The notes under the pieces were generated by a model. The model was not told the origin of the DNA. It was given only the letters and a program-made list of their open reading frames with translations, and searched no databases. 64,000 nucleotides of DNA, from assembly GCA_040382995.1 (NCBI GenBank), contig JBEIEK010000001.1, positions 21,919 through 85,918 of the forward strand, written 5' to 3'. Numbering within the stretch: position 1 is the stretch's first letter; each line of letters starts with the position of its first letter. This document shows positions 591-8,283 of the stretch, piece by piece. Source of the stretch: Planctomycetaceae bacterium. Its GTDB lineage: Bacteria > Planctomycetota > Planctomycetia > Planctomycetales > Planctomycetaceae. The translations under genes were made by a program, and so were the position numbers.

Positions 591-887
591 TCTGCCGATC
601 TCTGCTGTCATTCGTCTGAATCAGGCCCGCGAGTCATCCTCGTGGGCTTTTTTCGTTGGCAAATTGCCCTCTTCCCCCGAATTGGCTAACATCTGATCGC
701 GAGCCCCAGGAAGTTTGACGGCAAAGATTGCGTCTGCCTCCTGACCTCCCACCAGCCCGAGGCCCAACCCGAAAATGGATTGTGTCCCGAGCGGCTCGCC
801 CCATACCGCTCCTGCTCCCAACGGGCCTACCGCTCGTGTTCGCAAAGCGAACTCGCTGCCTGGCGTCCGACCGCCCCGCATACCAAT

Positions 888-3800
888 ATGCCCATCAAAG
901 TCGCTCTGTTCCATCAGACTTCCTATCACTACGACCGGCTGATCAGTCTCGGCCCTCAGGTAATTCGGCTCCGACCAGCCCCACACAGTCGCACTCCAAT
1001 CGACGCCTGGTCGCTCAAAGTCGAACCTGCCGGTCACTTCATCAACTGGCAACAGGACCCGTTCGGCAATTACCTCGCCAGACTCGTCTTCCCAGAGAAA
1101 ACCGACCACCTCATCGTCACCGTTGACGTCGTCGCTGACATGACCGTCATCAATCCCTTCGATTTCTTCCTCGAAGGCGAAGCCACTGATTTCCCGTTCA
1201 GCTACTCCGAAGAACTCGCTCAGGACCTCGAACCGTTCCTGCACCCCTGGTCCGATGCCCCGGAACTCCTGCAGTTCCGCCAGACCGTCGATTGCCGTCC
1301 CCGCCGCACCATCGACTTTCTCGTCAGCCTTAACCAGCTCGTTCAGCAGGCTGTCGGTTACACTATCCGGCTCGAACCCGGGGTCCAGACTCCAGCGCAG
1401 ACGCTGCAGAAACGCAGCGGCTCCTGCCGCGACTCCGCATGGCTGCTCGTCCACCTGCTCCGCAGCTTCGGACTTGCCGCACGCTTCGTCTCCGGCTACC
1501 TCATCCAGCTCACCGCCGACCAGCAGCCGCTCGAAGGCCCCGCCGGACCTGCCAGCGATTTCACGGATCTCCACGCCTGGACTGAGGTCTTCCTCCCCGG
1601 TGCCGGCTGGGTTGGTCTCGACCCCACCTCCGGACTGCTTACCGGCGAAGGCCACATTCCCCTCGCCGCCACTCCCGCTCCCCAGTCCGCCGCTCCCATC
1701 TCCGGCTGCGTCGACCCCGCCGAGGTCAGCTTTGACTTCCGCATGAGCATCACGCGGATTCACGAAGACCCCCGCGTCACCAAACCCTTCTCAGATGCCG
1801 ACTGGGAACGCATCGACCGCCTTGGCAGCGAAGTCGACAAACGACTCGCCGCCAGCGATGTCAGACTCACCATGGGCGGCGAACCCACTTTCGTCTCCAT
1901 CGATGACATGGAAGGTGCAGAATGGAATACGGCGGCCGTCGGACCCGCCAAACAGCGACTCTCCGATCAGCTCATTCGCCGCCTGCGTCAGCGGTTCGCA
2001 CCCGGCGCTCTCCTGCACTACGGACAAGGCAAATGGTACCCCGGCGAATCACTCCCCCGCTGGGCCTACACCTGCCTCTGGCGAACTGATGGACAGCCCA
2101 TCTGGAAGAATCCGGAGCTCCTCGCACCACTCCCGGATGCCGCCAACCAACCTGAGCGTTCCAGCAGCCCTGCCGTTGACGAACATCACGCCGCCGACTT
2201 CATGCTCGAACTCGCCCGCCGACTCGATGTCGACGATCGCTGGATCCGACCCGCGTTCGAGGACATGTTTCATCTGCTTGAACTCGAACAGCGACTGCCG
2301 GTCGATGTCGACCCGCGTAAATTTGATCCCGACACCGACGAAGACCGTCGCCGACTCTGCCGCGCACTCGAACGTGGCGTTCGCCGCCCCGCCGGCTTCG
2401 TGCTCCCGCTCAGCCGCGCGTGGTGGCAGTCCAATGCCCGCTGGACCAGTGGCTTCTGGCCGTTTCGGTCCCATCGCCTGTTCCTGATTCCCGGCGATTC
2501 CCCGATTGGACTGCGACTGCCCCTCGAATCTCTCCCCAGCGCCGCTGTTGACGTCCCGCCACTCGATCCATTCGCTGAACGTCCCAGCCTCCCCGGCTGC
2601 GCCGAAATTCGTCGCGCTCCCCAGGAACGCCTCGCCACGACACCCACAGACCCCTCCGCACCCCGACGCCAGACACAGATCCTGCAGCGTCTGGGACTTA
2701 TCGATGACCCCACCGAATCTTCCGACGATTATCCCGGCGGACCGGCATCCGCAGGACCGGTGATCCGCACCGCACTCTGCGTTGAACCTCGCAACGGTCG
2801 CCTGCATGTCTTCATGCCCCCCGTCGGCACTCTCGAAGACTACCTCGACCTCGTCGCCTCCATCGAAGACACCGCCGATCGCCTGCAACTCCCCGTGATC
2901 CTCGAAGGCTACCTGCCCCCACACGATCCCCGCATTCAGGTACTCAAGGTCACACCCGATCCCGGTGTTATCGAAGTCAACGTCCAGCCCGCCTCCAGCT
3001 GGGAACAATTGAAACACATCACCTGCGGACTCTACGACGACGCCCGCCACTGCCGCCTCGGCACGGAAAAGTTTCAGCTCGATGGACGCCATACCGGAAC
3101 CGGTGGCGGCAATCATCTCGTGCTCGGAGCCGCCACGCCGGCCGACAGCCCGTTCCTCCGACGCCCCGATCTGCTCAGGTCGATCATCGGCTTCTGGAAC
3201 AATCACCCGTCGCTCTCCTACCTCTTCTCCAGCCTGTTCATCGGCCCCACCAGCCAGGCCCCGCGTGTCGATGAAGGTCGCACCGATGCCCTGTCTGAAC
3301 TCGAAATTGCCTTCGACCACGTCCCCGAACCCGGCTGTGGCTGGGTCCCCTCGTGGCTCGTTGACCGAATCTTCCGCAACCTCCTCGTCGATCTCACCGG
3401 CAACACCCACCGCGCAGAAATCTGCATCGACAAACTTTACTCCCCAGACCACTCCGCCGGACGACTTGGACTGGTCGAATTCCGCGGCTTCGAAATGCCG
3501 CCGCACGAACGCATGAGCCTCGCCCAGCAGCTGCTCGTTCGCGCTCTCACCGTCGCCTTCTGGGAACAGCCCTTCCGCGAACCCCTCATTCACTGGAAGC
3601 ACGCCATTCACGACCGCTTCCTGCTCCCACACTGCCTCTGGCAGGACCTCGATCAGGTCGTTGGATACCTGCAAAACGCCGGTATCCCCATGGAAACCAG
3701 CTGGTTCGGAGCCCAGTTCGAATTCCGCTGTCCGCTCATCGGCACCTTCACAGCTGCCGGTGTCCACGTCGAAATCCGCCAGGCCCTTGAACCCTGGTAC

Positions 3801-4268
3801 GTACTCGGCGAAGAACCCGGAGGTGGCGGCACCACCCGCTTCGTCGACTCCTCCGTGGAACGCCTGCAGATCAAAGCCACCGGACTGCATGCCTCGCACC
3901 TCAGCATCGCAGTCAATGGTATTCGCGTCCCGCTGCAGCCCGGAACAGCACCCGGCGAATTCATTGGCGGCGTCCGCTACCGTGCATGGTGCCCACCCAG
4001 CTGCCTGCACCCCAATATCGGGGTGCATTCGCCGCTGATCATCGAAGTTGTCGACCGCGTCGCCCGCAGATCACTCGGTGGCTGCCGCTGCCACGTCGAT
4101 CACCCCGGCGGCAACAATCCCTCCGGCTACCCCATCAACGCACTCGCCGCCGAAAGTCGCCGCGCCGCTCGCTTCTTCCGCTTCGGACACTCCCCCGGAC
4201 AACTGGACCTTCGCGAACCACGCACGTCACAGTTCACCCCGTGGACCCTCGACCTGCGAAGACAATGA
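888..4268 (+). CDS. large transglutaminase-family protein (Bact_transglu_N + transglutaminase core + DUF2126-like C-terminal region)
   Basis: Start trimmed to ATG 888 (MPIKVALFHQTSYHYD, the typical family N-terminus). Core motifs GSCRDSAWLLVHLLRSFGLAARFVSGY and DLHAWTEVFLPGAGWVGLDPT supply the Cys, His and Asp. Long conserved-looking C-terminal region. Confidence 0.85.
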   Translation: MPIKVALFHQTSYHYDRLISLGPQVIRLRPAPHSRTPIDAWSLKVEPAGHFINWQQDPFGNYLARLVFPEKTDHLIVTVDVVADMTVINPFDFFLEGEATDFPFSYSEELAQDLEPFLHPWSDAPELLQFRQTVDCRPRRTIDFLVSLNQLVQQAVGYTIRLEPGVQTPAQTLQKRSGSCRDSAWLLVHLLRSFGLAARFVSGYLIQLTADQQPLEGPAGPASDFTDLHAWTEVFLPGAGWVGLDPTSGLLTGEGHIPLAATPAPQSAAPISGCVDPAEVSFDFRMSITRIHEDPRVTKPFSDADWERIDRLGSEVDKRLAASDVRLTMGGEPTFVSIDDMEGAEWNTAAVGPAKQRLSDQLIRRLRQRFAPGALLHYGQGKWYPGESLPRWAYTCLWRTDGQPIWKNPELLAPLPDAANQPERSSSPAVDEHHAADFMLELARRLDVDDRWIRPAFEDMFHLLELEQRLPVDVDPRKFDPDTDEDRRRLCRALERGVRRPAGFVLPLSRAWWQSNARWTSGFWPFRSHRLFLIPGDSPIGLRLPLESLPSAAVDVPPLDPFAERPSLPGCAEIRRAPQERLATTPTDPSAPRRQTQILQRLGLIDDPTESSDDYPGGPASAGPVIRTALCVEPRNGRLHVFMPPVGTLEDYLDLVASIEDTADRLQLPVILEGYLPPHDPRIQVLKVTPDPGVIEVNVQPASSWEQLKHITCGLYDDARHCRLGTEKFQLDGRHTGTGGGNHLVLGAATPADSPFLRRPDLLRSIIGFWNNHPSLSYLFSSLFIGPTSQAPRVDEGRTDALSELEIAFDHVPEPGCGWVPSWLVDRIFRNLLVDLTGNTHRAEICIDKLYSPDHSAGRLGLVEFRGFEMPPHERMSLAQQLLVRALTVAFWEQPFREPLIHWKHAIHDRFLLPHCLWQDLDQVVGYLQNAGIPMETSWFGAQFEFRCPLIGTFTAAGVHVEIRQALEPWYVLGEEPGGGGTTRFVDSSVERLQIKATGLHASHLSIAVNGIRVPLQPGTAPGEFIGGVRYRAWCPPSCLHPNIGVHSPLIIEVVDRVARRSLGGCRCHVDHPGGNNPSGYPINALAAESRRAARFFRFGHSPGQLDLREPRTSQFTPWTLDLRRQ

Positions 4269-4273
4269 ACTCT

Positions 4274-4300
4274 CCCCTCTCCCCTTCCTCGGGAGAGGGG
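4274..4300. terminator. G/C-tract hairpin just after the transglutaminase stop
   Basis: cccctctccc (4274-4283) pairs with gggagagggg (4291-4300) across a 7-nt loop. It starts 6 nt after TGA 4266-4268. No clear U-tract. Confidence 0.35.
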
Positions 4301-4370
4301 CAGGGGGTGAGGGGTGCAACACCACTGCAAAACGAGAGCACAACGGCCATAGTTGCCCTGTTTCCGCCGC

Positions 4371-4411
4371 TCACTTCGCCGCAAACACCTTCAGCGCCGC
4401 TTTCGCCACGC
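4371..4411. repeat. direct repeat, copy 1 (41 bp, identical to 7438-7478)
   Basis: tcacttcgccgcaaacaccttcagcgccgctttcgccacgc is present verbatim at both coordinates. Confidence 0.95.
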
Positions 4412-4458
4412 CAAGGGTTTTTCTGAATCTGACCGGTCGGGTTCTTTTCGGATTCGTC
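4371..4458 (-). pseudogene. frameshifted remnant of the 3' end of a TIM-barrel sugar-phosphate isomerase gene (paralogous to the end of 7438-8283)
   Basis: The minus strand reads ..DESEKNPTGQIQKNP.. versus ..EENEKNPIADIRECH.. in the intact gene. A 1-nt indel follows, then 41 nt identical to the intact gene end including the stop codon. No upstream gene body is present. Confidence 0.7.
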
Positions 4459-4510
4459 CGGCAGTGTTAACATCCTGTCCGAATCTTTTGATGATTATCG
4501 GGCAGCGAAT

Positions 4511-6355
4511 ATGCATGCAGTGAAGTTTCAACTCAATGCGGTAGACGTCCTTGCACGCTGGGTCCTCGATTTGCCAATCCTCGACTGGCAACCTGATGTT
4601 CAGAGGCTTCCGAGGATCACTGTGGTGCTTGCTGAGGGAGTCGCCACAGCTATTGAAGTAACGGGCATTCTTGGACGAGGTGGATTCGGAGTTGTGCTTG
4701 ACGCCACCGATGGAAACCGGCGCCTGGCCGTCAAGCTTCCGTTGCTGAAGGCCATGCAGCCAGGCTACGCTAAAGGTGTGCCGGCTGAGATCGATGCACT
4801 GCTGCGATCGGGAAATTTCCCTGAAGCAGTCCGTCGATTTCAGTCTGAACTGCAGAGCGTCAGGAGTCAATTGCAGGCCGGCCTGTCCACGCCAACAGCG
4901 ATAGCCTTTACAAAGAAATTCAGAAGAGAGTGCATTGCCCTGCAGAGACTGAAACACCCGAACATAGTGCATTTGAGATTTATAGGCGAAATTGACGCTG
5001 TTTTTTCAGGCCCTCACAGAACACTTCTGCCTTGCCTGGCCATGGACATCGTCGACGGGGCCAATCTGCAACAACGAATCATCGGATGCACCCAATCACT
5101 AAAGCAGGAGCTGCCGACGATCCTGAAAGTCTGCCGCGATACAGCACTCGCACTGGCCGCCTTACACGATATGGAACTCTGTCATCGCGATATCAGCTGG
5201 AACAACATTCTGCTCACGCGAGAGCAGGTCCCCGTTCTGATAGACCTCGGCAATGTCAACGATCCGGACGGGGCCGGAGATACGAGGCTGCAGATGTTTG
5301 AGGGAGTCCCGGGGGCTGCCATAGCATACACGCCGGGATTTGTAGCGCCGGAGGTTGTAGAGTCATGGGCACCCAACGAAGCGTCCGATCAATTCTCCCT
5401 CGGCGTCCTGCTTTATGTCTGGTGCCTCCGAGGAGACGTTTGGCCCTACAATCCGAAGCCTGTCGGAAGCTTCATCACCAATAATCCAAACGATCCCAAC
5501 CAACCCATACCGCTCGCAGACAGATTGAAAGCCGAGATTCGAGGAGTACGCAACAGCCCGGATAAGTGGCAACCGGACGAGCTGCAGGGACTTGGTCGAC
5601 TCTCGTCCATTGTCCAGCGCATGCTTAATAAGCAGCACCAGCATCGCTTCCCCTGCATGCGTGATGTGGCAGCTGAGCTACAGTCTCTGCTGATTGACCT
5701 CAAGGTAGAAAGATATTCTCAGTTCGATGATGTGGAACTTCAGCCGGTAGATGACTTTCTGGAACTTTGCCGACAAGTCAGTTTCCAAAGCCCCGGTGCA
5801 GCGCACGGCTGCCTTTTCCTGCAGCTGATGGTCCATCAGGCAAGGCTTCATCTGTCACGCTCCATCAGCCATATCTGGAAAACTCTGTTCAGCACATTTC
5901 ATGGCAGCGCGGATCTGAGCAGCCTTGCAGGAATGCAGACAGCGGTCGAACAAATTGACAAGATGGTTAATGACCTGAACACGGCATTCAGAGACATTCT
6001 CCTGAGCTTTGATAAAGTTCGAAACGACGCATCACTCACTCCACGCTTCGGTGGGCGACTCCGGCAACTCCTCGGACAGGTGCGGAATCACCTGCAGCCG
6101 CTGGTGACTCACAATCGTGAATGCAAAAGATCGCTGAAGGGTATGGTTGCATACACCCAATCCGTTCGGGGTAATGAAGATGTCGACCCGATTCTGCGAC
6201 AGAACGCTTCAAAACACGTGTCACAGCTTTGGGACATTGTCAGTGAGTTGCAGGCAGCACTTGGCGTGAGCGACTATGAATTGGCGCTGTACACCACGCG
6301 ATTGCGAGCCGTGCTGGCAAAAACTCGCACAGGTCACACAGGGAATGGCCGCTGA
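4511..6355 (+). CDS. atypical soluble Hanks-type Ser/Thr protein kinase with a roughly 210-aa helical C-terminal domain
   Basis: G-loop GRGGFGVV. Lys in LAVKLP. alphaC Glu in FRRECIALQRLKHPNIV. Catalytic loop HRDISWNNILL. DLG in place of DFG. FVAPE. SDQFSLGVLLY. No transmembrane or signal segment seen. Confidence 0.8.
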   Translation: MHAVKFQLNAVDVLARWVLDLPILDWQPDVQRLPRITVVLAEGVATAIEVTGILGRGGFGVVLDATDGNRRLAVKLPLLKAMQPGYAKGVPAEIDALLRSGNFPEAVRRFQSELQSVRSQLQAGLSTPTAIAFTKKFRRECIALQRLKHPNIVHLRFIGEIDAVFSGPHRTLLPCLAMDIVDGANLQQRIIGCTQSLKQELPTILKVCRDTALALAALHDMELCHRDISWNNILLTREQVPVLIDLGNVNDPDGAGDTRLQMFEGVPGAAIAYTPGFVAPEVVESWAPNEASDQFSLGVLLYVWCLRGDVWPYNPKPVGSFITNNPNDPNQPIPLADRLKAEIRGVRNSPDKWQPDELQGLGRLSSIVQRMLNKQHQHRFPCMRDVAAELQSLLIDLKVERYSQFDDVELQPVDDFLELCRQVSFQSPGAAHGCLFLQLMVHQARLHLSRSISHIWKTLFSTFHGSADLSSLAGMQTAVEQIDKMVNDLNTAFRDILLSFDKVRNDASLTPRFGGRLRQLLGQVRNHLQPLVTHNRECKRSLKGMVAYTQSVRGNEDVDPILRQNASKHVSQLWDIVSELQAALGVSDYELALYTTRLRAVLAKTRTGHTGNGR

Positions 6356-6382
6356 CGAGGGCAACCTTGTGCCACTCCCCGC

Positions 6383-6976
6383 TTGACTGTAGAACCACTA
6401 CCGCTAAAATTCCTCCTCCCTTCGCGGCTCCTCTCCTTTCCTCATGCAGCAGAACCCAGCCCAGTGAACCAGTCGATGCAAGATGCTCGAAATGCTGGTG
6501 AGTGCTTCTATTTGAAGGTTTTCCTTCAAATACAGGTCGCTGCTCTGGAGTACCTGATCGAGGATTTGTCGATACGGGCCCGCGAATGTCTCAGAGAGAG
6601 GGATTTTACGTTCGCCAAAGCCAGACGTCATCGTCAGGCTTTCGATGAGGCCATCCAGCGGTACCGGCGAATGATTTGGCCAATCGCGACAAGCGGGTTG
6701 GAGATTTCGGTCACGGAACAGGTGGAAAAATCCATCCGCAGCGTCGTTGTCCTCGTACGAAACGAATGCCCAAATGTTGATCCTGCAGATTCTGCCGACG
6801 GCCCCCTTCTTCCAGCGGACTGGAAAGCCCGTCTGAATAAATGTGCCAGTCTCGCCGATAATTTGGCTCGTGATTTGCGGCATTTATTGGACATCGCCAG
6901 TGATCTGCTTTCTCAAAAGGCCGAAATTTCCCGTCGAATCGAAGCATTCGTGCGAGAGATTTCCGCTTCAAGTTGA
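6383..6976 (+). CDS. hypothetical helical protein (island gene 2)
   Basis: The ORF starts at TTG 6383, with an alternative ATG at 6476 (MQDARNAGE). Same strand as the kinase. Charged, helix-rich composition. No family recognised. Confidence 0.5.
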   Translation: MTVEPLPLKFLLPSRLLSFPHAAEPSPVNQSMQDARNAGECFYLKVFLQIQVAALEYLIEDLSIRARECLRERDFTFAKARRHRQAFDEAIQRYRRMIWPIATSGLEISVTEQVEKSIRSVVVLVRNECPNVDPADSADGPLLPADWKARLNKCASLADNLARDLRHLLDIASDLLSQKAEISRRIEAFVREISASS

Positions 6977-7335
6977 TATCCCCCAAACAGGTTTGGATTA
7001 TGAAAGTACTGGGAGATCCTGTCGTAGATACACTCCTGAATGAGTTCCGTGAGGCTGTCAGTCAGCTGGAAAATCAATACCCGCGGCCAAACTCCAATGG
7101 TCAAACGGCTGTCAACCTTGTCAGACACCTCTGCGAACTTTCGCGCGATGTGATGTTTCATCTCGGCCCACCGCGATACGCCGAACTGCAGCAACTCAGG
7201 GACGCAGCCCTTGAGTTTGACCGCGCGATCAACGTTATTCAGCAATACTCCCCTACACCACTGCCCGATTTTTTGGCGGACTACTGCGATAATTTCAGCC
7301 AGCGTGCCGAACAGTGTCGCCAGGGTCTTCGGTGA
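6973..7335 (+). CDS. hypothetical helical protein (island gene 3)
   Basis: TTG 6973 overlaps the preceding stop (TTGA). Alternative ATG at 7000 (MKVLGDPVV). No family recognised. A hairpin follows at 7399-7423. Confidence 0.5.
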   Translation: MISPKQVWIMKVLGDPVVDTLLNEFREAVSQLENQYPRPNSNGQTAVNLVRHLCELSRDVMFHLGPPRYAELQQLRDAALEFDRAINVIQQYSPTPLPDFLADYCDNFSQRAEQCRQGLR

Positions 7336-7398
7336 CCCCCAGAAGTCTGCTCTCGGTGTTTCTCTGATAACCCGAAAAGCACACCACCAGCACTGGAA

Positions 7399-7423
7399 GC
7401 CGCCGAATCGTTGATTCGGCGGC
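7399..7423. terminator. perfect 11-bp stem / 3-nt loop hairpin between convergent genes
   Basis: gccgccgaatc-gtt-gattcggcggc. It lies between the stop of island gene 3 (7335) and the stop of the isomerase gene (7438). Confidence 0.5.
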
Positions 7424-7437
7424 CCCGTTTGCCTCAA

Positions 7438-7478
7438 TCACTTCGCCGCAAACACCTTCAGCGCCGCTTTCGCCACGC
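7438..7478. repeat. direct repeat, copy 2 (41 bp, identical to 4371-4411)
   Basis: Forms the last 13 codons plus the stop of the isomerase gene. Confidence 0.95.
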
Positions 7479-8283
7479 TATGGCATTCCCGAATGTCAGC
7501 AATCGGGTTCTTTTCGTTCTCTTCATACTCCAGCGACAGCGCTCCGTTGGCCGGGAAACCAGCCTGCTGCAACTCCGTAAACACCGCTTCCACGTCCAGA
7601 TGCCCCTTGCCAAGGATCACTCCCCTGGTCTTGTCCTGCATCTCGGCGAAATCCTTCAGGTGGATGCCGTACAGTCGCCCCTTCAGCAGCCGAATGACCT
7701 CGGGACCGCTTTGTCCCGAACGGATGTAGTGCCCCAGATCCGCACAGGCCCCAATCCGCTCATCACGACGCTCGATCACACGCAGCACGTCAATCGCCTT
7801 GTTGTAACGATGCGTCGGACCATGGTTGTGGATCCCCACGCGAATGTCAAACTCCTTCACCAGCTCATCCAGGCTGTCAAACGAATCGAAATCAGGATCC
7901 GCCGTCAGACAGGCAATCCCCAGCTTCTTCGCGAATTCAAACATCTTCCGATTGGCGGCCGCATCCTTCGTAAAGCGGTTCACACCGTGAGCTGAAATCG
8001 ACAGCCCCAGGTCCGTAACCTGCTTGCGAACGGCAGCGATTTCCTCGTCCGAGGCATTCAGGGGCAGCATGCCGCTGTAAAACTCCACAGACTCAAAACC
8101 CAGCTCGCTGGCATATTTCAGCGCCTCGTCCCGCTTGAAACCACGCAGGGAATACAGCTGGATGCCAAGTCTGGGTCGCTCGGCAGATGCGGCAAGGGAC
8201 AGCCGCGGAAACGTTCCGCAGACCGCCATGGTTCCGACAAGCGATGCAGTGTTCAGGAAGGTACGCCGAGATTGAAGCGACAT
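7438..8283 (-). CDS. Tat-exported sugar phosphate isomerase/epimerase (xylose isomerase-like TIM barrel)
   Basis: ATG 8283. Twin-arginine signal MSLQSRRTFLNTASLVG. LGIQLYSLR, ISAHGV and GIHNHG motifs are typical of the AP_endonuc_2/TIM-barrel family. Confidence 0.8.
   Translation of the reverse strand: MSLQSRRTFLNTASLVGTMAVCGTFPRLSLAASAERPRLGIQLYSLRGFKRDEALKYASELGFESVEFYSGMLPLNASDEEIAAVRKQVTDLGLSISAHGVNRFTKDAAANRKMFEFAKKLGIACLTADPDFDSFDSLDELVKEFDIRVGIHNHGPTHRYNKAIDVLRVIERRDERIGACADLGHYIRSGQSGPEVIRLLKGRLYGIHLKDFAEMQDKTRGVILGKGHLDVEAVFTELQQAGFPANGALSLEYEENEKNPIADIRECHSVAKAALKVFAAK

Follow-up and report, generated by a model that had tools for sequence, protein, structure and literature searches.

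A 64,000-nucleotide (nt) stretch of contig JBEIEK010000001.1 from a Planctomycetaceae bacterium (assembly GCA_040382995.1, positions 21,919 to 85,918; hereafter the window) carries a cassette of three open reading frames (ORFs) on its plus strand at 4511-7335, and the question raised by this locus is what kind of system, if any, these three genes make up. The first gene encodes a soluble Hanks-type Ser/Thr kinase of 614 amino acids (aa) (4511-6355, +), and it is followed by ORF2, which encodes a helix-rich protein of 166 aa (6476-6976, +), and by ORF3, which encodes a predicted four-helix bundle of 111 aa (7000-7335, +); each of the two small proteins represents a new family. An original prediction, made from the letters of this DNA, had described a kinase with two small partners brought in by insertion, and the three ORFs lie where it placed them. 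Sequence evidence portrays the cassette as an accessory, horizontally acquired element of ~3 kb with what appear to be two transcription units, the last point following from promoter consensus matches. Taking the evidence as a whole, we consider it slightly better than an even bet that this cassette is an undescribed kinase-effector system acting in defense or as a toxin–antidote pair, its function being predicted from the features set out below.

The three genes form an obligate, co-evolving unit. Both partners lie downstream of the kinase on the same strand at 11 of the 11 loci with an intact kinase (the window, L008, L001, L003, L004, L006, L009, L010, L022, L023, and L025, where L numbers denote fetched loci), and this co-occurrence, which the original prediction had proposed as a check, holds down to kinase identities of ~27% (25-30%) and extends to a kinase variant of 879 aa that is longer at its N-terminus and is preceded by two additional genes. 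Among the loci examined, none combines an intact kinase with the loss of a partner. Matrices of pairwise identity correlate among the three proteins (Mantel r 0.74-0.88, permutation p ≤ 0.0005), which argues that the three genes are inherited together. Incomplete copies of the trio have lost the kinase first. At L017 the catalytic core has been removed by an in-frame deletion that fuses the kinase at residue ~175 to ORF2 at residue ~30 and leaves ORF3 intact; at L019-L021 repeat elements have disrupted the kinase, and both ORF2 and ORF3 are intact; and at L027 only ORF3 is left of the trio. This asymmetry, seen in a small sample, is what would be expected if the kinase were harmful without its partners. 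The most divergent member of the family, L023 (187-5481; also L024), has a kinase with an N-terminal extension of ~260 aa and extra upstream same-strand genes for proteins of 169 aa and of 292 aa, the latter with a Cys-rich N-terminus and abutting the kinase start. Neither the extra genes nor the extension has a Pfam or PADLOC match, and the L023 type may be a five-gene version of the system.

The kinase belongs to the Hanks-type superfamily by both its Pfam score, which exceeds the gathering threshold (PF00069, Pkinase, E = 1.4e-22, 80.8 bits against a cut-off of 31.7), and its kinase fold. Its closest solved structures by sequence are mycobacterial PknB and PknA (E ~5e-23), and a Foldseek comparison of its AlphaFold2 (AF2) model (mean predicted local distance difference test score [pLDDT] 73.6, predicted template modeling score [pTM] 0.79) with the Protein Data Bank (PDB) returned PknB 3ori as the best match (E = 4e-10). 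Three parts can be told apart in the protein: an N-terminal extension peculiar to the family (aa 1-45), the kinase core (~48-396) and, at the C-terminal end, a four-helix domain. All of the Hanks catalytic elements that had been read from the sequence are present, namely GRGGFG (aa 55-60), AVK (K75), the alphaC Glu (E140), HRDISWNN (225-232), DLG (245-247) and APE (279-281), and an alignment of 14 family members shows G55/G57/G60, K75, E140, H225-R226-D227, N232, D245-L246-G247 and A279-P280-E281 to be invariant, as are the alphaF motif DQFSLGV and R379/R384. Pfam identified no second domain beyond that of the kinase, and no transmembrane or hydrophobic segment was found, in agreement with the earlier view that the protein lacks a membrane anchor or recognizable sensor domain.

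Several features set this kinase apart. The distance from the beta3 Lys (K75) to the alphaC Glu (E140) is 65 residues, ~3 times the usual spacing, and ranges from 63 to 78 aa across the 14 members; the DFG position reads DLG in all of them. Both peculiarities had been noted in the window copy and can now be regarded as traits of the family rather than quirks of a single sequence. The extra length corresponds to a helical insert (4736-4927, +), which AF2 models as helices at 90-99 and 103-125 placed just ahead of alphaC (128-146). In addition, the catalytic loop reads HRD[LI][ST]WxN in 14 of 14 members, so that Ser or Thr replaces the Lys of HRDxKxxN, a residue typical of Ser/Thr-specific Hanks kinases, next to an invariant Trp. 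We take the absence of the catalytic-loop Lys to be an atypical feature of the subfamily that leaves its membership in the superfamily unaffected. The kinase looks catalytically competent and constitutes its own atypical subfamily within the Hanks superfamily.

The helical C-terminal domain, which the original prediction was unable to place, is modeled as four long helices (aa 430-465, 472-498, 515-551, and 558-607; 5729-6331, +) and has no family by sequence or by fold. Its only Pfam match is a weak one to ATG17_like (E = 0.017), and Foldseek searches with the whole kinase model matched kinase cores only. An exhaustive hidden Markov model (HMM) search of 1.84 billion representative proteins recovered the domain in 15, and every full-length match is a kinase of ~600 aa (one of 879 aa) with the domain at its C-terminal end. 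By this measure, the four-helix domain is specific to this kinase family.

The two small ORFs are real and conserved genes, and of the alternative lengths originally proposed for them only the shorter ones stand. ORF2 homologs begin at MQDARN (ATG 6476) and ORF3 homologs at MKVLGDP (ATG 7000), with the pattern M-x-x-L-x-DP, and since homologs from every related locus align from these starts, the true products are of 166 and 111 aa. The 197-aa and 120-aa forms are contradicted both by the homolog alignments and by the position of a promoter-like site: the TTG at 6383 is the -35 hexamer of that site and not a start codon, and the TTG at 6973, which was the source of a TTGA stop/start overlap between the two genes, is used as a start by no homolog. 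With the short starts the overlap disappears, and ORF2 and ORF3 are separated by a gap of 23 nt. Both genes are conserved at every related locus and are under purifying selection, with dN/dS ratios against a relative at ~87% nucleotide identity of 0.19 for ORF2 and 0.06 for ORF3, compared with 0.14 for the kinase and 0.05-0.07 for flanking housekeeping genes.

Neither small protein belongs to a well-known family. Searches of ORF2 and ORF3 against Pfam, NCBIfam, PHROGs, PADLOC and PDB sequence profiles gave no significant match, and the AF2 model of ORF3, a four-helix bundle (pLDDT 88.8, pTM 0.83), had no Foldseek match at E ≤ 0.001 in the PDB or in BFVD, a library of viral structures. The ORF2 profile search gave at least three proteins, and ORF2 homologs were otherwise recovered from the loci with local HMMs. 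Invariant residues of ORF2 include two Cys and a D-E-A motif. ORF3 is marked by the motifs LCELSRD, FHLGPPxYA and YCxNIxxRAxRCR, with C45 and C96 invariant and C106 conserved in at least 90% of members, and the conserved Cys, of which ORF3 has three and ORF2 two, may make up a redox or metal site. Ser residues are invariant as well, at S48 within LCELSRD of ORF3 and at S78 of the 166-aa ORF2, and would be candidate phospho-acceptor sites. A distant paralogy between the two proteins had been suggested from the likeness of AFDEAIQRY in one to EFDRAINVIQQY in the other; this likeness is not conserved in the ORF3 family, the profile-profile homology probability is 0.5%, and paralogy among ORF2, ORF3 and the kinase C-terminal domain was likewise rejected (hhalign probabilities all < 3%). 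The window ORF3 and its close relative are the most divergent of the family, with 31-43% identity to other members, which share 38-80% with one another, and the window copy is without the helix-3 Cys (CFE motif) carried by about two thirds of members.

The evidence supports an entry of the cassette into its present site by insertion, as the original prediction had supposed. The GC content of 4451-7421 is 53.6%, below that of all 245 same-size tiles of the window (mean 59.2%, standard deviation 2.1), and GC at third codon positions is 0.52-0.58 in the cassette genes as against 0.66-0.72 in the flanking genes. Convergent with ORF3 lies a gene for a xylose-isomerase-like TIM-barrel protein (7438-8283, -), and on either side of the cassette lies one copy of an imperfect direct repeat of 95 nt, 87% and 77% identical in two blocks, that corresponds to the 3' end of this gene. 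The right copy, R2 (7422-7516, -), is the functional gene end. The left copy, R1 (4355-4450, -), is a frameshifted relic of the terminal ~27 codons, with the stop codon and 16 nt beyond it; it translates as GVAKAALKVFAAK followed by a stop, where the true gene end reads SVAKAALKVFAAK followed by a stop. The relic is also found in L008, in a more decayed state, and the insertion must therefore predate the split between the window and L008 lineages. A second, independent case is found at L003, where a repeat of 95-132 nt with 74-80% identity (1250-1375 and 4894-5022) brackets the trio at another target gene. Here a CDP-alcohol-phosphatidyltransferase-like gene has its 3' end in the right copy, and the left relic keeps its frame and stop codon, with conservative substitutions. 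This architecture resembles that of elements that integrate into the 3' end of a gene and supply a replacement end. No recombinase is encoded within the cassette, and no shared terminal sequences were apparent when the cassette ends of the window and L003 were compared by eye, without alignment.

None of the other fetched loci has flanking repeats of this kind, and only L010 has repeats of another sort, resembling repetitive extragenic palindromic (REP) elements. The L010 trio is flanked by REP-like palindromic 34-nt repeats (2686-2719, 6075-6108, and 6175-6208), and similar repeat clusters replace the N-terminal half of the kinase at L019-L021 (L020, ~1400-2300). Repeats of the REP-like type flank the trio in Planctomyces-type loci; many short contigs (L013-L015) end at them, and they account for the breaks of many assemblies at this point. 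A 3086-nt Logan contig was considered as a possible circular form of the cassette and rejected, as its length equals that of a unitig bounded by exact 40-nt repeat cores. No genome with an empty insertion site was retrieved, the species-representative scan having yielded one metagenome-assembled genome (MAG) only. As read from these sequences, the trio moves between genomic sites: flanking genes differ in nearly every lineage, and related trio lineages occupy differing contexts, e.g., L004 versus L025 and L010 versus L021. Between the window (4511-7335) and L008 (7521-10336), the synonymous divergence (dS) of the cassette is 0.26-0.48, below the 0.53-0.62 of the flanking genes, a difference that codon usage could explain, as could a more recent exchange of the cassette between these lineages.

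The family is also exceedingly rare. A word-indexed search of 5.8 billion proteins found five or six full-length relatives of the kinase, with generic kinases dominating the results beyond the family, and ORF3 forms 25 clusters at 90% identity in the same set. A scan for ORF3 of 185,579 genomes, one per species, found it in a single MAG, Planctomycetota bacterium JBJTOM01, in which the cassette occupies the same site as in the window. This figure, together with the 15 matches of the C-terminal domain, places the kinase far from a common core-genome ortholog. The few source names available are all Planctomycetota or Planctomyces sp., and searches of IMG/VR viral contigs, INPHARED phages and PLSDB plasmids recovered no relatives. 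An exact look-up of the window kinase likewise gave no record. Full-text literature searches on kinase-based defense in Planctomycetes, on DISARM (defense island system associated with restriction–modification) plus a kinase, and on Hanks-type kinase toxins returned nothing describing the trio.

Defense genes recur in the neighborhoods of the trio. Clear PADLOC defense genes lie within ~3 kb at five of 11 distinct contexts (a raw count, without a matched background), and at two of these five the trio lies directly 5' of drmA. L001 (1-7196) carries the C-terminal part of DrmMI, the trio, DrmA (E = 5e-284) and DrmB, and L025 (1-7351) carries NsnC, PDC-S02 (a DUF1016 nuclease), the trio and DrmA. 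L017 (640-2640) is a doubly deleted derivative of the L025 arrangement, with a kinase-ORF2 fusion and a second fusion of the DrmA N-terminus to the DrmC C-terminus. Elsewhere, IetA/IetS are encoded 2.4 kb downstream of the trio at L021, an HNH restriction-like nuclease and a NADAR protein matching PDC-M42C are found at L004, and mad3- and mad1-like genes accompany the remnant at L027. Matches to defense genes at L003 and L009 are weak or ambiguous; the neighbors in the window and L008, L006 and L010 are metabolic or unannotated; and those at L023 have no family match. The likeness to defense or toxin–antitoxin modules that was first proposed from the layout of the genes has thus gained context from DISARM, Ietis, HNH nuclease, PDC-S02/NsnC and MADS-like neighbors, with the function itself still inferred.

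A role outside conflict, which we regard as unlikely, is the alternative that survives best. The trio would then be a signaling module of host physiology, in which the kinase senses an intracellular cue via its helical domains and ORF2 and ORF3 are dedicated substrates or adaptors. Planctomycetota carry many Hanks-type kinases, and beyond the family the matches are mostly generic kinases; the metabolic neighbors of the cassette in the window and L008, its retention at the same site under purifying selection, and the conserved Cys of ORF2 and ORF3, which could form a redox or metal sensor, would all be at home in such a module. This sits poorly with the extreme rarity and patchy distribution of the family, its atypical GC and flanking duplication, and its frequent decay, as well as with the differing chromosomal contexts of related lineages (L010 versus L021, L004 versus L025) and the repeated placement of the trio in defense islands. 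We continue to prefer a kinase-effector system of defense or toxin–antidote type.

Putative control signals in the cassette suggest how such a system could be kept in balance. A sigma-70-like promoter-like site, TTGACT-16-TAAAAT, matching the consensus at 10 of 12 positions, precedes ORF2 (6383-6410, +), and both of its hexamers are kept between the window and L008. Comparable sites are present in the kinase-ORF2 gap, which measures ~120 nt in several distant loci, at eight of 12 loci, with 10/12 matches in the window, L008, L006, L022 and L023 and 9/12 matches in L004, L010 and L018. The background of these criteria in all fetched DNA is 1.9e-4 per nt per strand, corresponding to ~0.4 sites expected over all gaps. 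The recurrence of the site suggests that ORF2 and ORF3 are transcribed separately from the kinase, and as judged from the consensus matches their putative separate promoter would probably be the stronger one. At L006 there is an overlap between the -10 box and the annotated ATG, and this, too, favors a start of the MQDARN type. At the nucleotide level, the recurring TTGAC-N16/17-TAnAAT pattern in the gap is the one similarity among these loci. Upstream of the kinase, a consensus scan finds a weak promoter-like site, TTAACA-17-GATGAT (9/12; 4467-4495, +), 16 nt from the start codon, and similar 9/12 sites occur upstream of the kinase in five of 10 loci. A terminator between the kinase and ORF2 was considered and rejected, as no hairpin is consistent across loci. 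The perfect hairpin reported after the gene string is indeed present, between the convergent ORF3 and TIM-barrel gene (7399-7423): it has an 11-bp stem, GCCGCCGAATC-GTT-GATTCGGCGGC, with a folding z-score of -3.4, and is likely a bidirectional terminator, one that a simple terminator scan missed because it has no T-run.

In the kinase-effector system that we favor, the kinase would be the toxic effector, and ORF2 and ORF3 would bind it and hold it inactive. The likely contact surfaces would be the alphaC-proximal insert and the four-helix domain, which we propose because the positioning of alphaC is a general control point of the kinase fold. With a stronger promoter of their own, ORF2 and ORF3 would outnumber the kinase. 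The restraint would be lifted or changed when a phage infects or the cassette is lost, and the freed kinase would phosphorylate host or phage proteins, stopping growth or phage replication in the manner of abortive infection or of a toxin–antidote system.

A number of observations weigh against this proposal. Binding of the partners to the kinase, its toxicity and the trigger are all inferred, and every promoter call is a consensus match. The absence of the catalytic-loop Lys (HRDISWNN) could mean that the enzyme has a different substrate or chemistry and does not simply phosphorylate proteins. A DNA-binding domain is present in most type II antitoxins, and no recognizable one was found in ORF2 or ORF3; the kinase gene, moreover, comes first in the cassette. 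The sample comprises ~11 independent contexts, among which the DISARM-linked loci represent one lineage and are not fully independent. The surroundings of the cassette in the window and L008 are everyday metabolic genes, a position that it has kept stably (dS about 0.3-0.5), and L006, L010 and L023 are without clear defense neighbors.

Some of these same features bear on the idea that the trio is purely an addiction module, i.e., a toxin-antitoxin system that stabilizes the DNA in which it resides with no anti-phage benefit, which we judge to be more doubtful again than the signaling role. The decay asymmetry, in which the kinase is lost first and ORF3 is kept, the separate promoter-like site for the small genes and the mobility of the trio as a compact unit would all suit addiction. 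Addiction modules are common on plasmids, phages and viral contigs, however, where the trio was not found, and no antitoxin-type DNA-binding domain is detectable; addiction is also hard to separate from the defense or toxin–antidote role that we prefer, since many toxin-antitoxin systems act in defense as well.

The DISARM loci deserve separate consideration. The trio lies ~320-340 nt upstream of drmA on the same strand in both L001 and L025, and DISARM genes flank it only at these two loci and L017. Between L001 and L025, DrmA identity amounts to 85% over the core and 65% over the N-terminal part, whereas the adjacent kinases are only 33% identical, and such similar DISARM operons with such divergent kinases imply either fast evolution of the trio or an exchange of cassette variants at a fixed position. 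Least probable of the alternatives is that the trio is a DISARM accessory, a sensor, regulator or extra effector working with DrmA/B/C as DrmD or DrmE accompany the core genes: its place shortly before drmA (and, in L001, after drmMI), the derivation of L017 by deletion from the same arrangement and the presence of 33%-identical trio variants at the same position in operons with 85%-identical DrmA would fit this, yet all linked cases come from one DISARM lineage, no DISARM gene is found within the available sequence at the window and L008, L003, L004, L006, L009, L010, L021 or L023, and without DISARM the trio keeps all three genes and its own promoter-like sites, which argues for autonomy.

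A fuller picture, which we advance only tentatively and as a single package, would join these strands. The cassette would be a self-contained immune module in which two new helical families clamp or sense an atypical kinase, perhaps via a Cys metal or redox site; the unit would spread as an integrase-less cassette of ~3 kb into the 3' ends of genes, leaving a substitute end behind; and divergent trio variants would be exchanged at a fixed position in DISARM operons. To our knowledge, Planctomycetota are almost absent from experimental defense screens, and if our proposal is correct the cassette would provide a kinase-effector immune or toxin–antidote system from this phylum, along with two new families that regulate a Hanks-type kinase and a way of controlling bacterial kinases, by the proposed route through the alphaC insert and the four-helix domain, that would itself be new. 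New candidate defense systems are now common, and because this family is tiny its importance would lie in mechanism and not in prevalence. Given its rarity, the family offers comparative evidence of unusual clarity.

Two further features lie next to the cassette. The upstream neighbor (780-4268) encodes a protein of 1162 aa whose N-terminal part resembles transglutaminases and which has a DUF2126 domain, a putative amidoligase (Pfam E = 0); it is 93% identical to its counterpart in the relative and is ordinary context outside the cassette. Just past its stop codon is an insert of ~85 nt (4271-4355) with a G/C-rich inverted repeat, CTCTCCCCTCTCCCC...GGGAGAGGGGCAGGGGGTGAGGGG, which is absent from L008, present in a single copy in the window and found in no other fetched locus. 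This insert is likewise outside the cassette proper.

A comparison of the cassette with described kinase systems shows both shared elements and significant disparities. With the bacterial Hanks-type kinases PknB, PknA and StkP it has in common the kinase core, including the G-loop, beta3 Lys, alphaC Glu, HRD, Asn, the Asp of D(F/L)G, APE and the alphaF Asp. Unlike these proteins, the cassette kinase possesses no transmembrane segment or PASTA domain, has the 63-78-aa Lys-alphaC spacing, DLG, the HRD[LI][ST]WxN loop and a private four-helix C-terminal domain, and is accessory rather than core, being always accompanied by two small partner genes. The eukaryotic necroptosis effector MLKL, a pseudokinase, also has a four-helix bundle fused to a kinase-like domain, and its likeness to the cassette kinase is one of analogy. 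The domain order of the cassette kinase is reversed relative to MLKL and all catalytic residues are kept, and Foldseek matches of its model, which cover the kinase core only, include no structural match to the MLKL bundles.

Among defense systems, Stk2, PD-T4-6, MADS (mad6) and BREX/Pgl (PglW) resemble the cassette in placing an accessory eukaryotic-like kinase in a defense context. Stk2 and PD-T4-6 consist of a single gene each, and MADS and BREX are large, with many genes that include methyltransferases; none of these systems is known to have counterparts of ORF2 or ORF3. The PADLOC profiles for PD-T4-6 and mad6 match the generic kinase core only (E ~5e-30), and the best PD-T4-6 match, from a PADLOC model without a curated cut-off, covers aa 132-398 and takes in neither the N-terminal extension nor the C-terminal domain. 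Scores against NCBIfam fall far below the cut-offs both for MAD6 (NF047741; 55.6 bits versus 460) and for PglW (NF033442; 13.2 bits versus 990), placing the kinase outside the MADS and BREX/Pgl families. The TerY-P triad, composed of a TerY von Willebrand factor A (vWA) protein, a PP2C phosphatase and a Ser/Thr kinase, is likewise a three-gene, defense-associated module built around a Hanks-type kinase; in the cassette, by contrast, the partners are two small helical proteins, and vWA and PP2C are absent by Pfam and PADLOC, so that it does not belong to this group. As for DISARM, the immediate neighbors of the cassette in the window have no match to the PADLOC DISARM models, and the core set of drmA, drmB and drmC is not present there.

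HipBST, with HipBA, offers a further parallel in its tripartite form, which combines a kinase with two small proteins, and in the proposed restraint of a kinase toxin by its partners. HipA and HipT belong to another kinase family, however, and HipB, a helix-turn-helix (HTH) protein, is encoded first, whereas the cassette kinase is Hanks-type and itself encoded first, and no HipA-family or HTH match was found by Pfam. Thus the cassette falls outside MADS (MAD6), BREX/Pgl (PglW), TerY-P and HipBA/HipBST, and would be best described as a kinase-effector conflict system with two new partner families. In Stk2 the kinase is an abortive-infection effector, and the logic proposed here for the cassette follows that of Stk2; by analogy, its working mode would be most like that of kinase-based defense, as in Stk2, PD-T4-6, MADS and TerY-P, or that of the kinase toxin-antitoxin system HipBST.

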